In this document: piece by piece, positions 56,586 to 62,221 of the stretch
Layout: the number at the start of each line of letters is the position of its first letter
Position numbering within the stretch: the first letter of the stretch is position 1
Assembly: GCA_963719945.1 (NCBI GenBank)
Contig: CAVRDX010000001.1
Coordinates: 160,001 to 224,000, forward strand
Direction: 5' to 3'
DNA from: an uncultured Thermoplasmata archaeon
GTDB lineage: Archaea; Thermoplasmatota; Thermoplasmata; UBA10834
Length of the DNA stretch: 64,000 nucleotides
Notes under the pieces: generated by a model
Database searches by the model: none
Told to the model about the DNA's origin: nothing
What the model saw: the letters and a program-made list of their open reading frames with translations, nothing else
Made by a program: the position numbers and the translations under genes

Positions 56586-57704
56586 CTACTGGTTCTTCAG
56601 CCTGCTAATGATGGCCTCTCCCATGGCAGTGGTCGACATCTTGCCACCCACATCCGCGGTCCTGTGTTTTCCATCGCCCAAGACACTCATGACAGCTGAT
56701 TCCGTCTCATGAGCAGCATCCTTGTACCCCAGAGTATCCAACATCAGGGCCGATGAGAGGATTGCTCCGACTGGGTTGGCGAGGCCTTTTCCCGCGATAT
56801 CTGGAGCTGAACCGTGGACAGGCTCGAACATGCTCACACCGCTCGGGTTGATGTTCCCCGATGGCGCAAACCCTAGTCCTCCCTGCAGAGCTGCTCCCAG
56901 ATCCGTGAGGATGTCTCCGAACAGGTTGGGTGTGACAAGGACCTTGAATCTCTCAGGGTTCCTCACCATGTGAAGTGCAACCGCATCGACATACTGGAAC
57001 TCCTTCTCAATCCCGTAGATGTTCGATGCTTTCTCCACCTCTTCTCTCCAGAGCCCGTAGACCTCTGTGAGGACATTCGCCTTGTCGACGGAGGTCACGA
57101 GGTCGAGACCTTTCTTCTTCGCGAAATCGAACGCGTAGTCGATCACGCGCCTCGCACCTTGCCTGGTGATGATCCCTATCTGATATGCCATCTCGTCTGC
57201 ATCCTTGAGGTCGATTCCTATGTCGAACTTGACCTCATAGGCCTTTCTGATGAGATTGAGCTGCTCTCTCGAAGATCCCGTCTTGACCCGGCTGCCCAGA
57301 CCGACATAGAAATCCTCGGTGTTCTCCCGGATGAAGTACATGTCTATCCTCTTATCTCCAGCCAATGCGGTAGGCACTCCCTGGAACAGCTTCACCGGTC
57401 TGAGGTTGACATACTGGTCGAAATGGAATCTGAGTCTGAGCAGAATGCCTTTCTCAAGCACACCTGGTTTTACTCGAGGGTCACCCATCGCGCCAAGCAG
57501 GATGGACTCCTTCTCCTCCAATCTGGATATGGTTTCGTCTGAGAGCACCTCTCCAGTCTTCAGGTAGTGCGCCGCCCCCAAAGGGAACTCTTCGAAATCG
57601 AGCTGGATGCCATTTCTTTCGCAGACGACATCCAAGACCTTGCGCGCTTCCCTGACTACCTCTGGTCCTATCCCATCTCCTGGAATCACTCCGATCTTGT
57701 GCAA
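56586..57704 (-). CDS. leuB: 3-isopropylmalate dehydrogenase
   Basis: GDGIGPEV, RENTE, VDKANVL, NLFGDILTD, EPVHGSAPDIAG. Confidence 0.9.
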   Translation of the reverse strand: MHKIGVIPGDGIGPEVVREARKVLDVVCERNGIQLDFEEFPLGAAHYLKTGEVLSDETISRLEEKESILLGAMGDPRVKPGVLEKGILLRLRFHFDQYVNLRPVKLFQGVPTALAGDKRIDMYFIRENTEDFYVGLGSRVKTGSSREQLNLIRKAYEVKFDIGIDLKDADEMAYQIGIITRQGARRVIDYAFDFAKKKGLDLVTSVDKANVLTEVYGLWREEVEKASNIYGIEKEFQYVDAVALHMVRNPERFKVLVTPNLFGDILTDLGAALQGGLGFAPSGNINPSGVSMFEPVHGSAPDIAGKGLANPVGAILSSALMLDTLGYKDAAHETESAVMSVLGDGKHRTADVGGKMSTTAMGEAIISRLKNQ

Positions 57705-58189
57705 CCCAATCTCTCCTTGGTGTAGGGTACTAGACCCCCTTTCTCCATAAGCATCATCACGAAAGGCGGATAGCTGGCGAATGTGGTCTCCTTTCCGGAG
57801 CTGTGGTTCCTGGCGACACCCTTTGATAAATCCACCTCGACGTCATCTCCCTGGTCGACCTCCAGCTTCGCCTCGATGACTGGTAACCCTATGTTGATCG
57901 CGTTTCTGAAGAATATCCTGGCAAATGATTCTGCGACGACGCAGGACACCCCTGCCCCTATCAATGCTCTGGGGGCATGCTCTCGACTCGAACCGCACCC
58001 GAAGTTCCTTCCGGCCACTATCACATCGCCTTCCTTCACGTTGGCGGAGAATTCCGGCATGACCTTCACGAATGCGTACTTGGCAAGCTCAGCGCTGTTC
58101 ATCGTGACGAGATACTCGGCGGGTATGATCTGATCAGTATCTACATTGTCCCCGAACACCCATGCCTTCCCGGCGAAATGCGATTTCAT
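57686..58189 (-). CDS. leuD: 3-isopropylmalate dehydratase small subunit
   Basis: DNVDTDQIIP, NFGCGSSREHA, SFARIFFRN. Confidence 0.92.
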   Translation of the reverse strand: MKSHFAGKAWVFGDNVDTDQIIPAEYLVTMNSAELAKYAFVKVMPEFSANVKEGDVIVAGRNFGCGSSREHAPRALIGAGVSCVVAESFARIFFRNAINIGLPVIEAKLEVDQGDDVEVDLSKGVARNHSSGKETTFASYPPFVMMLMEKGGLVPYTKERLGCTRSE

Positions 58190-59439
58190 CCAGTCACCTC
58201 AGATGGGTCGACTATTCTCCCAGCAACTGCGCTCGCCGCGACGACTGCGGGACCCGCAAGGTAGACCTCAGATTCTTTGTGCCCCATTCTGCCAACGAAG
58301 TTCCTGTTCGTCGTGCTGACGCATCTTTCCCCTGGAGCGAGCACACCCATGTAGCCTCCGAGACATGCACCGCATGTCGGGCCGGATATGAACGCACCCG
58401 CATCGGAGAATATCTTGAACAGCCCTTCTTCCATCGCCTTGTCGAAGACTTCCTTGCTCGCAGGCACTACGATCATCCTGACTCCTTCGTGTACCTTCTT
58501 CCCTTTCAGTATCGCGGCCGCGACTCTGAGATCCTCTATCCTTCCGTTCGTACATGATCCCAGATACGCCTGGTCAATGGCAACTCCGACCTCGCTCGCA
58601 GGTGCCACATTGCTGGGCAGGAACGGTTTCGCGACCACTGGGACGATGTCTTTCGCATCGTACTTCCTGATATCCGAATACTCGGCATCCTTGTCCGCGA
58701 AGACCTTTTCATAACTGCCTCTGACACGGCCCTTCAGATAGTCATCCACCTTCGCGTCAGGTGGTATCATGCATGCCTTTGCTCCCGCTTCTATGCCCAT
58801 GTTGGATATCGTGACCCTTTCAGAGACGGGCAATGCGAAGATAGTGTCACCGACGACTTCCATCGATTGATAGAGTGCGCCTTCGACCCCGATGTCTCCT
58901 ATGATTGTGAGTATTATGTCCTTTCCAGACACATGCTTTCCAAGCTGTCCGTCTACTTCGAACTTCATCGATTCTGGCACTTTGAACCATAGGGCGCCTC
59001 TCGCGAACACCGTTGCGGCCTCAGTGCTTCCGATCCCTGTGGCGAATGCGCCCATCGCTCCGTATGAGCACGTATGCGAATCGGCTCCGACTATCAGCCT
59101 TCCAGGTGCAACGAACCCCTTCTCGATCATCAGTTGGTGGCAGACGCCGCTGGACCCTATTTCGAAGTAGTTGCGTATCTTGTACTTGGATGCGAAATCC
59201 CTCATCTTCTTCGCCTGGATCGCAGATGCCACGTCCTTGTTCGGAACGTAGTGGTCCGGGATCAGAACCATCTTCTTCTCCAGCGGGGGTGTGCAGAACC
59301 CCTCGAACTCATCGAACGCAGCTGGAGCCGTGATGTCATTCACCATCACATAGTCGACCTCTGCTTCGATGATCTCTCCTGCGCGGACGTCCTTTTGAGC
59401 CTTCGTTGACAATATCTTCTCAGCTATGGTCTTTCCCAA
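58186..59439 (-). CDS. leuC: 3-isopropylmalate dehydratase large subunit
   Basis: TIAEKIL, DSHT, GSCTNGR, CGACLG, TNRNF.GR; likely TTG start at 59439. Confidence 0.93.
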   Translation of the reverse strand: MGKTIAEKILSTKAQKDVRAGEIIEAEVDYVMVNDITAPAAFDEFEGFCTPPLEKKMVLIPDHYVPNKDVASAIQAKKMRDFASKYKIRNYFEIGSSGVCHQLMIEKGFVAPGRLIVGADSHTCSYGAMGAFATGIGSTEAATVFARGALWFKVPESMKFEVDGQLGKHVSGKDIILTIIGDIGVEGALYQSMEVVGDTIFALPVSERVTISNMGIEAGAKACMIPPDAKVDDYLKGRVRGSYEKVFADKDAEYSDIRKYDAKDIVPVVAKPFLPSNVAPASEVGVAIDQAYLGSCTNGRIEDLRVAAAILKGKKVHEGVRMIVVPASKEVFDKAMEEGLFKIFSDAGAFISGPTCGACLGGYMGVLAPGERCVSTTNRNFVGRMGHKESEVYLAGPAVVAASAVAGRIVDPSEVTG

Positions 59440-59455
59440 TGCCACGCACCCCTCT

Positions 59456-61096
59456 TCAGTATGCCTTCCTCTTGACTTTTCCGCCGTTTGCGCCAAGCTT
59501 GTGCATCCAGAGCCTGTTCAATGCTTCCACGGTGGCGTCAACGCTCGTCGTCACTATGTCCGAACCGACGCTCTTTCCGAGTGCGAGGAGTTGAGAATCC
59601 TCACAGTCTCCGAGCTTCACAGTGACCTCACAGAGTGCGTTAGACCCGCCAGTTATCGCTTCGAGCCTATATTGCTTCAGCACGATGTTCTTCGATACAG
59701 CTGTCCTTATCGCGCTCAGGCTCGCATCTATCGGGCCAACGCCGGTCTCCGAAGCCCGCCTGACCTCTCCATCTATGTTGAGGACGACCGTGGCCGTGGG
59801 TGTGAAGTTCAGTCCCGTGAAGACTGTGAATTCCTCGAGCCTTATCACAGGCTCCTTCTCCTCACTTATCTCGTCATAGGCGACTGCGAGCAATTCCGCA
59901 TCATCCAGCTTCTTCCCGGACTCTGCGTACTTCTTTATCCTCGCGACCACTTCTTTGAGCTGGTCTCCGGTGAGGTCGAGTCCATATTCCTTCAGTTTGT
60001 TCTGGACCGCGTGGACTCCGGAGTGCTTGCCGACTACGAACACCCTCTCCTTGCCGACGATCTCAGGTCTCATTGGCTCGTATGTTGAGCACTCGCTAAG
60101 CACCCCGTGAACATGTATTCCCGCTTCGTGTGAGAATGCGTTCTCGCCGACGATGGCCTTGTTCGGTTGGACAGGTATCGCAGTGAGCTGTGACACCAGT
60201 CTCGACACGAAAGCCATCTTCCTGGTGTTGATCCGGGTCTTTATCCCGTAGAACGCCTGAAGTCCCATCACGACCTCCTCGAGGGCTGCGTTTCCAGCAC
60301 GCTCTCCAAGGCCGTTTATCGTACAGTGGACCTCCTCCGCACCCCCGAGTATGCCCGCCAGGGAGTTGGCGACTGAGAGTCCGAAATCATCATGGCAGTG
60401 CACTGCGAGAGGTACCTTAGTCGTCTTCTTGATCTCAGCGACGAACTGCATCATCGCTTGCGGAGTCATGACTCCGACGGTATCTGGGATGTCGATCCTG
60501 TCGACGCCTACCGCCTCGATCGCTTTGTGTACGGTGTTGAGGAATTCGAGGTCTGTCCGCGTGCCATCCTCGCAGCTGAATTCGACTATGAACCCGTGGT
60601 CTTTTCCATATTGGACTGCGGTCACAGCCTTTTCAACGGCCTCCTCCCTGGATATCTTGAGCTTCTTCTCCAGGTGCACCTTGGAGGTCGCAAGGAAAAT
60701 ATGGATAGAATCGACATCACACGCCAATGCGGCATCTATGTCCGGCTTGCCCGCGCGACAGAGTCCGCAGATCTCGCTCTTGAGTCCCGCCGCTGCGATC
60801 TTCTTCACAGCCTCGGCTTCGCCCTCTGAGTTGACTGGGAAGCCGGCTTCGATTATGTCCACTCCCAGTTCATCCAAGGCCTGTGCGATCTTGAGCTTGT
60901 CGTCGATTGATAGCGCCACATTGGGCGTCTGCTCGCCATCTCTCAGGGTAGTGTCCAGAATCTTCACAGTCTCGGGCATCCTGGTTGCCTGAAAGATCTG
61001 CTTATTGTATTCACTGACGAAGACCCCTTTGTCTGGGACCTTGAACACGCCGACTTCTTCTTGTTTAGCACTCTCACTCGGAGCTTGTGTGGGCAT
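59456..61096 (-). CDS. leuA: 2-isopropylmalate synthase (LeuA/CimA family) with C-terminal regulatory domain
   Basis: DTTLRDGEQ, HCHDDFG, GLGERAGN, HEAGIH, GVGPIDA. ATG at 61096 after GGAGAG. Citramalate synthase cannot be excluded. Confidence 0.85.
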   Translation of the reverse strand: MPTQAPSESAKQEEVGVFKVPDKGVFVSEYNKQIFQATRMPETVKILDTTLRDGEQTPNVALSIDDKLKIAQALDELGVDIIEAGFPVNSEGEAEAVKKIAAAGLKSEICGLCRAGKPDIDAALACDVDSIHIFLATSKVHLEKKLKISREEAVEKAVTAVQYGKDHGFIVEFSCEDGTRTDLEFLNTVHKAIEAVGVDRIDIPDTVGVMTPQAMMQFVAEIKKTTKVPLAVHCHDDFGLSVANSLAGILGGAEEVHCTINGLGERAGNAALEEVVMGLQAFYGIKTRINTRKMAFVSRLVSQLTAIPVQPNKAIVGENAFSHEAGIHVHGVLSECSTYEPMRPEIVGKERVFVVGKHSGVHAVQNKLKEYGLDLTGDQLKEVVARIKKYAESGKKLDDAELLAVAYDEISEEKEPVIRLEEFTVFTGLNFTPTATVVLNIDGEVRRASETGVGPIDASLSAIRTAVSKNIVLKQYRLEAITGGSNALCEVTVKLGDCEDSQLLALGKSVGSDIVTTSVDATVEALNRLWMHKLGANGGKVKRKAY

Positions 61097-61131
61097 CAAA
61101 ACACTCTCCAAAAAATCCTACACTGCAGCAT

Positions 61132-61191
61132 CTAGGCTAGGATAAGCAGCCCCAAGGGCAGAATAAGCTGAATCTTATTCTCTTGTGCCAT
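61132..61191 (-). CDS. Putative Leu/Ile-rich leader (attenuator) peptide MAQENKIQLILPLGLLILA
   Basis: GGAGG at 61202-61198, ATG at 61191, TAG ending at 61132; 6 Leu and 3 Ile in the last 13 codons; stop is 35 nt before the leuA ATG. Confidence 0.7.
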   Translation of the reverse strand: MAQENKIQLILPLGLLILA

Positions 61192-61260
61192 TCCTTGCCT
61201 CCATGTCATAGTGGGGTCACACCCTTCTTGGGCATGACAATCATCTGCATGGTCTCGATT

Positions 61261-61274
61261 GATATAAACTTTTG
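61261..61274 (-). promoter_or_regulatory. BRE/TATA promoter of the leu operon
   Basis: Minus strand CAAAAG-TTTATATC, about 70 nt upstream of the leader ATG. Confidence 0.6.
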
Positions 61275-61399
61275 CTGGCTCAATGCTGGCCAATCATGTT
61301 CGGTTGCTGGACACATCTGTACAATGCATGGCTGGCCATACGCATCCTACTTTGGAAGGATAGAAATATGATGTGATTTGTACGAGGCTGGTGGTATTC

Positions 61400-62221
61400 G
61401 TGAAGGATAAGGTCGTCGCATTCCAGGGTGAACAGGGAGCCTATTCCGAAGACGCCTGTGTCAAGTACTTCGGAGCCGATGTCACCGCTAGACCCTATCC
61501 AGATTTTCAATCCGTCTTCGAGGCGGTCGAACGGGATGAGGTCACACATGCGGTCGTTCCTGTCGAGAACTCGATAGAAGGGAGCGTCACGCAGGTCAAC
61601 GACCTCCTGCTGGACCACGACTTGGGGATATCCGGTGAGGTGATAGTCCCTGTCAAGCATTGCCTCATGGTTGCCAAGGGAGCTTCTGAGGAAACAATCC
61701 GAGAAGTACTCAGTCATCCACAGGCTCTGGGACAATGCAGAAAATTCCTTCAAAGGCATAATGCTTGGCGGACGATAGCATCCTACGATACCGCCGGCAG
61801 CGCGAAGATCGTTGCCGAATCAAAGCGTCTGGACCTTGCAGCGATCGCCAGCAAGAGGGCCGCGTCGCTATACGGTCTGGAGATCCTCAGGGAGGACATC
61901 CAGAACGAGGATACCAATGTCACGAGGTTCTTTGTGATGGAGAAGAACCCAGGTACGGTCGAGAGCGCCGACAAGACTTCGATAGTCTTCGCCACGAAGA
62001 ACGCTCCAGGCGCGTTGTACAAATGCCTCGGAGAGTTCGCTTCCAGAGGGGTCAATCTATCCAAGTTGGAGTCCAGACCGAGGAGGAACAAGCCTTGGGT
62101 GTACGTTTTCTTCGCAGACATCGAGGGCGGAGTGGAGGATCCAGACTGCCACGCTGCCATAGGTGGGCTGCTCAAGACCGGTGCATTTGTTAAAGTCCTC
62201 GGCTCGTACAAGAAAGCCTGA
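61400..62221 (+). CDS. pheA: Prephenate dehydratase with ACT domain
   Basis: FQGEQGAYSE, PVENSIEG, SHPQALGQC, N.TRF, NLSKLESRP; GTG start at 61400. Confidence 0.95.
   Translation: MKDKVVAFQGEQGAYSEDACVKYFGADVTARPYPDFQSVFEAVERDEVTHAVVPVENSIEGSVTQVNDLLLDHDLGISGEVIVPVKHCLMVAKGASEETIREVLSHPQALGQCRKFLQRHNAWRTIASYDTAGSAKIVAESKRLDLAAIASKRAASLYGLEILREDIQNEDTNVTRFFVMEKNPGTVESADKTSIVFATKNAPGALYKCLGEFASRGVNLSKLESRPRRNKPWVYVFFADIEGGVEDPDCHAAIGGLLKTGAFVKVLGSYKKA

Follow-up and report, generated by a model that had tools for sequence, protein, structure and literature searches.

A leucine-rich candidate leader peptide within a conserved RNA clamp precedes the leuACDB operon of an uncultured Thermoplasmata archaeon

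In a 64,000-nt stretch of the genome of an uncultured Thermoplasmata archaeon (contig CAVRDX010000001.1, positions 160,001 to 224,000; hereafter the window), the leucine biosynthesis operon leuACDB is preceded on the minus strand by a structured leader that carries a short, leucine-rich upstream open reading frame (uORF). We consider it probable that this leader acts in cis as a ribosome-read leucine gauge, i.e., as a leader peptide, for leuACDB. In bacteria, leader-peptide attenuation is textbook knowledge and requires transcription to be coupled to translation. A full-text literature search returned leader-peptide attenuation in bacteria only and no archaeal case, and the archaeal ribosome profiling (Ribo-seq) papers that were found treat uORFs generally. 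A sequence-only reading of the region had pointed to such a leader, and every feature that it listed was found at the position it gave when the minus strand is read.

The uORF occupies positions 61132 to 61191 (minus strand), running from an ATG at 61191 to a TAG at 61134-61132, and comprises 19 codons (MAQENKIQLILPLGLLILA), six of which specify leucine and three isoleucine. Its own Shine-Dalgarno (SD) sequence, GGAGG (61198-61202), lies 8 nt ahead of the ATG, and the end of the frame lies 35 nt from the leuA ATG. Both the SD and the 19-codon Leu-rich frame upstream of leuACDB had been described by the sequence-only reading and are confirmed here. The order to which the window belongs is represented by 49 species genomes in two families. 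To the leuA upstream regions of 23 relatives from the same family we added those of 11 further species, retrieved with a DNA pattern, for a total of 34 leaders belonging to four genera (g1 to g4) in which leuA is 81-97% identical. A uORF with its own SD is kept in all 34, with a length of 19-21 codons and a GGAGG-like SD 8-10 nt 5′ of the start, and these frames are enriched in leucine; the idea that related Thermoplasmata would carry such uORFs in their leuA leaders was thus borne out. The first half of the peptide is variable and polar (MAPQSN.., MKHESN.., MTRKLAG..), and the tail of 12 residues is conserved in the family as LLILPLGLL[LI]LA. The variable N-terminal part measures 21, 24, or 27 nt, so that only whole-codon indels occur, and the frames all stop at one place, with TGA in 15 leaders, TAA in 14, and TAG in 5. 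In one leader (L012) the aligned ATG has been lost and an in-frame ATG two codons upstream stands in its place. Whole-codon indels, the use of three stop codons, and the replacement of the ATG form the pattern of a translated frame, and the uORF is therefore probably translated. The leuA uORF is also more than chance: frames with an SD, 10-25 codons, and at least six Leu codons were found in only 2 of 1416 upstream regions of the genome, one of them being the leuA uORF itself. A covariance model (CM) of the leader likewise returned one copy only in the window's genome.

To which amino acid the leader would respond can be read from its codon composition. Leucine makes up 38% of the family leader codons versus 9% in the long ORFs of the genome, while valine makes up 1% versus 7.7% genome-wide. 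Isoleucine, at 8% versus 6.9% genome-wide, is close to its background, and most relatives have a single Ile codon. The signal is thus leucine and not leucine plus isoleucine; of the joint Leu/Ile sensing that had been suggested from the window alone, the leucine part is supported and the isoleucine part is not. As far as can be judged from these comparisons, leucine sensing is a well-supported role for the putative leader peptide. The Leu runs mix CUG, UUG, CUU, CUA, and CUC codons, so that only the Leu reading frame is homopolymeric.

The leucine run extends well beyond the family. A search of 300 genomes of the class added five families, represented by 40 leuA upstream regions. From one family to another, peptide and RNA sequences diverge, while a Leu run near the end of the uORF and a helix bracketing the uORF persist. 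In the sister family (f2), whose leuA is 66% identical, the frame terminates with a run of Leu codons (MSEYNMKLGNLDLLLLLLG, MSGSKSHNAILSLLLLLLG, MDAKRSSASILPLQLLLLLC). In other families, Leu-rich uORFs end 25-64 nt ahead of leuA, as in f25 (MEPRFRKPLLLTLRLLPLA), f33 (MNAQRLGLLLLLRLVPAPLL), f30 (MWNAIEIELLFLRLYC), and a single member of f26 (MRHNKMICLLLLLH), the remaining f26 members carrying MTMSIIIVDGHGLLRA. Nearly all sampled members of f6, a large family of complete 1.3-2.2 Mb genomes, have such a frame (MIFAQHIGLLLLE, MICNAFIGLLLLLE, and about 20 more, among them MIFSTTTGLLLLK), the exceptions being L106 and L107. Overall, Leu runs of 3-6 residues are present in seven families of the class, within peptides of 13-21 amino acids. 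This pattern bears on the possibility that the uORF product is a small hydrophobic peptide that acts independently, for instance in the membrane or in trans, its position before leuA being incidental or a matter of co-expression. Such a peptide would account for the strong conservation of the C-terminal dodecapeptide in the family, and bacterial leader peptides that act in trans do exist (peTrpL). However, both length and sequence vary between families, where only the Leu run stays. A membrane helix would need more than the 5-12 hydrophobic residues available, which have Pro-x-Gly at their center. Some leaders (L016, L041, and L044) moreover tolerate the replacement of Leu by Arg or Pro, and the frame is always found in cis to leuA, in one copy per genome. 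We accordingly regard an independent peptide function as highly improbable.

The RNA that carries the uORF is predicted to be structured. With a folding energy of −47 kcal/mol (z = −2.6), the leader outperforms 199 of 200 dinucleotide-shuffled versions, and one architecture is common to 21 of 23 single-sequence leader folds and to the alifold consensus. It begins with a 5′ hairpin, P1 (61216-61238, minus strand; GUCAUGCCC-aagaa-GGGUGUGAC), which is part of the minimum free energy (MFE) structure of every leader and in which 5-7 of the 8 pairs show compensatory changes, with about 90% of alignment cells paired. In DNA letters, P1 is the hairpin GTCATGCCC-aagaa-GGGTGTGAC at 61238-61216 that had already been noticed in the window, and it proved to be both perfect and conserved. 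The next helix, P2, the first of the two parts of what we refer to as the clamp, brings together a 5′ arm at 61203-61215 and a 3′ arm at 61117-61131 that extends from just past the uORF stop to 1 nt before the T tract; it is found in the MFE of 21 of the 23 leaders and in the alifold consensus. Within P2, CC and CACU pair with AGUG and GG (61117-61124), and CAU (61203-61205) pairs with AUG (61129-61131). In genera g1-g3, 83% of the P2 cells are paired versus 28-45% with slid partners. The second part of the clamp is P3, whose 5′ arm, AGGC-A-AGGA (61192-61200), is overlapped by the uORF SD (the two together covering 61192-61202) and whose 3′ arm, UCCU-A-GCCU (61134-61142), consists of the last sense codons and the first base of the stop. 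The SD and spacer (AGGC-AGGA) would therefore be bound by the end of the uORF itself (UCCU-GCCU), and these pairs are 89-100% kept. The predicted pairing of the uORF SD with the uORF's own 3′ end and the conserved 12-residue tail are both features added by this family. Two smaller hairpins lie within the frame. P4 (61160-61181; AGAAUAAG/CUUAUUCU), whose 3′ arm is formed by the first Leu/Ile codons, corresponds in DNA to AGAATAAG (61181-61174) and CTTATTCT (61167-61160), a hairpin that the earlier reading had placed inside the uORF and that is indeed present; the MFE structures of relatives contain a shorter analogue (AGCA.../UGCU). P5 (61149-61159; GCCC-UUG-GGGC) is a mini-hairpin that coincides with the Pro-Leu-Gly codons, and its stem is identical in the 34 leaders while its loop varies (GAU, AUC).

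Taken together, P1, P2, P3, and P5 are 85-90% paired versus 28-47% in slid controls. In an alignment of 24 sequences from g1-g3, 89.7% of the cells pair versus 28-45% when slid, and 10 pairs show double changes, a number matched by 1 of 500 shuffles. A model-fitted alignment of 35 sequences, which is biased towards the structure, gives 85% of cells paired and 21 double-change pairs, matched by none of 500 shuffles. Most of the covariation is held by P1, with P2 and P3 being mostly conserved in sequence, with some G-U pairs and few compensatory changes. The stronger argument for P2 is positional, in that a bracket around the SD and the uORF recurs in other families with unrelated sequence. In f2 the bracket helix reads GCAUUGG/CCAGUGC or ACACUCGGA/UCCAGAGUGU, and in f6 it reads ACCGUCA/UGACGGU, with 89% of cells paired versus 23-49% when slid and with a CG-to-UA swap that yields ACCGUUC/GAACGGU. 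A conserved structure made of the 5′ hairpin P1 and of a long-range clamp, P2 plus P3, around the uORF and its SD is thus well supported by the comparative folds. This clamp is absent from the sequence-only reading, which had proposed other switch stems. One of them, ATCCTA (61143-61138) with TAGGAT (61120-61115), was rejected as the key terminator helix: the sequences are there, but they show no covariation, with 74% of cells paired, no better than shuffles or slides by −2 or +1, and only the window and its closest relatives have all pairs intact, other leaders retaining 3-5. Two further pairings were observed in f6 (L083-L108). The uORF SD can pair with its own start codon (AGGUCAU-GAA-AUGAUCU or GAGGAU...AUCUUC), which would explain the conserved MIF/MIC start of the peptide. 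GUCAG or UCCAG, the segment past the stop, is also complementary to the 3′ arm of the bracket helix, so that an alternative structure is possible, as seen by eye only.

A structure of this kind might also be read by a protein or a ligand, with the Leu codons kept as CU-rich partners of SD-like sequence and not for slow decoding. A precedent is the actinobacterial LEU element, a compactly folded region upstream of leuA that contains a uORF with a Leu run and for which such a reading has been proposed (Seliverstov et al. 2005, PMC1262725). At the nucleotide level, CUGCCCUUGGGGCUG and the P3 arm are indeed more conserved than the peptide alone would demand, and in P3 the partner of the Leu codons is a purine stretch resembling an SD. 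Yet the RNA sequences differ completely between families while the in-frame Leu run, start, SD, and stop persist, and the CUG and UUG codons, which make up 41% and 13% of the leader Leu codons, cannot pair with a GGAGG-type sequence. The restriction of indels to whole codons and the change to Val/Ile/Leu codons in the leader of ilvB, described below, also argue against an element read as RNA. No Rfam family matches the leader either: a scan of 60900-61500 with E up to 10 found none, Leu_leader (RF00512) included, and gave three chance matches to eukaryotic long noncoding RNA and microRNA models. The leader covariance model (R1) matches only this order, with a weak match to one f2 leader (L024). 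We consider recognition of the RNA by a protein or ligand to be improbable. In addition, the base stem of the LEU element joins the Leu-codon run to the leuA SD, with a pseudoknot proposed (PMC1262725), whereas the archaeal P3 joins the last codons of the uORF to the uORF's own SD. The archaeal clamp leaves the leuA SD outside, and the computed accessibility of this SD is independent of the leader state. In this respect the archaeal leader, as modeled, departs from the LEU element.

The comparisons above support the anatomy of the leader, its conservation, its leucine specificity, and the clamp. From them we propose a mechanism whose steps, from translation of the uORF and stalling to the switch direction and the output, would be as follows. 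Transcription would start at the foot of P1, which would serve as a stabilizing 5′ hairpin, and a ribosome would load on the GGAGG of the uORF during RNA synthesis, then read the 6-9 Leu codons found in the second half of the 19-21-codon frame. With the uORF and its SD in the loop of the clamp, a ribosome inside and a closed clamp would be mutually exclusive. When charged tRNA-Leu is scarce, the ribosome would dwell on the Leu codons, the clamp would stay open, and polymerase and/or initiating ribosomes would enter leuA. When leucine is ample, the ribosome would finish and leave, the clamp would shut before the T6 tract and the leuA ribosome-binding site (RBS), and leuA would go down; the closed clamp would then end 1 nt before T6 (61110-61115, minus strand) and 7 nt before the leuA SD. 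This direction, in which open means on, is presumed because biological logic dictates it. The formation of P3 would shut the uORF SD after a first pass, so that mainly the pioneer ribosome would be read, which fits co-transcriptional reading by that ribosome.

Archaeal RNA polymerase terminates at oligo-T and needs no hairpin to do so. For the window's genome, the output that we favor is premature termination or pausing at T6, with hindered initiation at leuA as the alternative, since runs of six or more T lie within 45 nt 5′ of only 0.5% of the long ORFs of this genome and since a tract of T5-T6 is kept in three genera (g1-g3). Termination at T6 had been suggested from the window alone, and the tract is present at 61115-61110, but it is not kept in every genus. 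It is reduced to T4 or TTCT in g4 (part of which carries AATTCTGG) and is weak or absent in f26 and some other families, so that oligo-T termination would not be the sole or universal output. The same leucine-sensing uORF could instead work through a purely translational output, which we judge unlikely, though a serious rival: the closed clamp would hinder 30S docking or a standby site at the leuA RBS, a stalled ribosome would keep the region single-stranded, and no premature termination would occur. The uneven conservation of the T tract among genera and families favors this version, as does the finding that T5+ runs are not enriched after genes in the window's genome. It is strongest in f6, where the 3′ arm of the clamp ends 2 nt before the leuA SD, and in the ilvB leader a hairpin also abuts an SD with no T tract after it. 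In the window's family, however, 6-13 nt separate the clamp from the leuA SD, which it does not include, the computed accessibility of the SD and AUG is identical for all ribosome positions, and T5-T6 follows the clamp directly in three of the four genera, and such tracts are otherwise rare 5′ of starts.

Several results weigh against the leucine gauge with termination as its favored output. The covariation of P2 within the family is modest, because its sequence is mostly conserved, and in g4 P2 takes a shifted register (GCACCGCA/UGCUGUGC) that the MAFFT and CM alignments miss; for this genus, P2 was assessed only by folding sequences one at a time. The leaders yielded no conserved antiterminator, and the candidate alternative stem, ATCCTA/TAGGAT, is without covariation. 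The energy of a flank-to-flank duplex is no better than that of shuffled flanks (z about 0 to −2), and as this energy does not discriminate, covariation and positional conservation were relied on. Leaders were also folded while masking, codon by codon, the 28 nt covered by a ribosome, an equilibrium treatment that ignores sterics. These folds show the same accessibility of the leuA SD and AUG for every ribosome position and permit P2 pairing even with a ribosome halted at the earliest Leu codons; when the transcript is cut at the T tract, P2 is blocked only once the A site has reached the final 2-3 codons or the stop. The exclusion of a closed clamp by the ribosome would thus be a purely steric argument, in which P3 closes a loop of about 49 nt that is too small for a ribosome and P2 would have to close around it. 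The degraded T tract of g4, f26, and others and the lack of T5+ enrichment at gene ends count here as well, and a clamp-assisted terminator is an assumption, because the archaeal polymerase does not need a hairpin. Finally, mutations of the Leu codons in the actinobacterial leuA leader did not produce the behavior of a classical attenuator, according to data cited in that study (PMC1262725). As a separate candidate, sequestration of the leuA RBS according to ribosome position was rejected, with no systematic change in the masked partition-function folds of this family and four others.

The leuA leader shares its main parts with the enterobacterial attenuators leuL (RF00512), trpL, hisL, pheL, ivbL, and ilvL, namely, a short ORF with its own RBS in the leader of a biosynthetic operon, end-product codons that form a run or are overrepresented, and a structured RNA with a U tract before the first structural gene. 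It differs from enterobacterial leuL in having a promoter with a TATA box and a B recognition element (BRE), in being transcribed by a polymerase that terminates at oligo-T without a hairpin, and in having no sequence or structure match in Rfam. Nor does it show a 1:2 / 2:3 / 3:4 arrangement or a supported antiterminator; instead, one clamp encloses the SD and the whole uORF. In addition, the archaeal Leu codons reach the penultimate codon, and the U tract is not universal among the relatives. The parallel with bacterial leuL-type leaders drawn by the sequence-only reading is nonetheless apt, and it is strengthened by the class-wide conservation and by a Val/Leu/Ile leader before ilvB.

This second candidate leader peptide lies in the same genome, outside the window. 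The ilvB gene (TIGR00118; C1:553951-555600) is preceded at a distance of 63 nt by a 26-codon uORF rich in Val, Leu, and Ile, MSAGQVNLTLLLRTLEVIVDLRIVGL (G000:C1:553807-553887, equivalent to L110:1357-1437), which starts about 36 nt past a TATA box (TTAATATA), has no SD, and is apparently leaderless. According to a composition filter, the frame is kept in 29 of 30 loci of the order (e.g., MLESAGQGKLVPILVVLGVLVDLRILRP, and MTRSADKGKIVANQGLLVGVLVVLRIERP in f2), and the thirtieth locus (L141) has a similar frame when read by eye. Val, Leu, and Ile together account for 35-50% of these uORFs. A hairpin, CGCCCG..GGACAC-loop-GUGUCC..CGGGCG, follows the uORF and begins in its last two codons. The change from Leu codons only before leuA to Val/Leu/Ile codons before ilvB mirrors that between leuL and ivbL/ilvL in E. 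coli and points to decoding, not RNA pairing, as the conserved property. No leader was found for ilvD, where an upstream coding region abuts the gene. A de novo genome scan for SD-preceded uORFs with amino-acid runs was rejected as a source of further candidates, its top hits, before aspartyl-tRNA synthetase, a proteasome subunit, a surface protein, and unassigned ORFs, being chance; it missed the ilvB leader because that leader has no SD.

We consider it an evenly balanced possibility that leader peptides are a regular and old feature of archaeal branched-chain operons across Thermoplasmata, f6 included, before both leuA and ilvB, working, unlike the bacterial design, through a single ribosome-held clamp with no antiterminator and with either oligo-T termination or initiation as the output. 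If that is true, these leaders would represent the first archaeal attenuation mechanism and would provide direct functional evidence that transcription-translation coupling is used for regulation in archaea. A class-wide, leucine-specific leader together with a matching ilvB leader would show archaea using the ribosome as an amino-acid sensor. The clamp suggests a simpler, two-state design, which could reveal how the archaeal polymerase or initiation responds to nascent RNA structure. The question would then be directly testable, because related leaders occur in cultured-size, complete assemblies.

The promoter of the leu operon consists of a BRE-like CAAAAG and a TATA box, TTTATATC, at 61261-61274 (minus strand); its TTTATAT is identical in 23 of 23 aligned family leaders, in agreement with the BRE/TATA promoter previously read at 61274-61261. 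From the usual distance between TATA box and start, the transcript is predicted to begin at about 61238, the first base of P1, approximately 25 nt past the TATA box. A simple promoter and terminator scan detected neither. Between the TATA box and the predicted start, at about −14 to −10, lies a CCATG (61248-61252, minus strand), whose CAT is identical in 23 of 23 aligned leaders and whose flanking C and G are present in at least 90%; no coding or pairing role was seen for it, and a role as promoter-proximal element or regulator site is conceivable.

Downstream, the leuA RBS (GGAGAG, 61104-61109) and start codon (ATG, 61094-61096) occupy 61094-61109 on the minus strand and open the candidate regulated operon leuACDB (56586-61096, minus strand), whose genes were assigned by Pfam domains as the sequence-only reading had supposed. 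They are leuA (59456-61096; HMGL-like and LeuA_dimer), leuC (58186-59496; Aconitase), leuD (57686-58189; Aconitase_C), and leuB (56586-57704; Iso_dh), all on the minus strand; the 546-amino-acid leuA product contains HMGL-like, HCS_D2, and LeuA_dimer domains. The leuA reading frame begins with codons (MPTQAPSES, 61067-61096, minus strand) that are kept between distant families, reading M.TQQTSES in f6 (L083-L108), and are conserved in protein and partly in nucleotides. In the folds these codons pair with the leuA SD region, whose SD has an unpaired probability of 0.1-0.3 in all states, so that a constant RBS hairpin may exist. The genome also contains two shorter HMGL-type leuA paralogues (G000:C3:202125-203258 and G000:C4:71510-72619), which are 43% and 38% identical to leuA, lack LeuA_dimer, and could encode citramalate or homocitrate synthase; no copy of the leader was detected near either of them with model R1.

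The divergent neighbor of leuA, on the opposite strand, is pheA (Pfam). A Phe-rich leader for pheA was considered and rejected, as no Phe-rich uORF is conserved on that side. Two motifs on the pheA side of the spacer are kept family-wide (plus strand, 61309-61323 and 61352-61368): GGACAnnTnTGTRCA, which may be a regulator site, and TGGAAGNNTAGAAATA, the likely TATA region of pheA. The pheA start assigned by the ORF finder, a GTG at 61373 (plus strand, 61373-61402), is probably too early, since comparison with relatives places the beginning of the conserved pheA coding sequence at about GTG 61400, with a GGTGG ahead of it.

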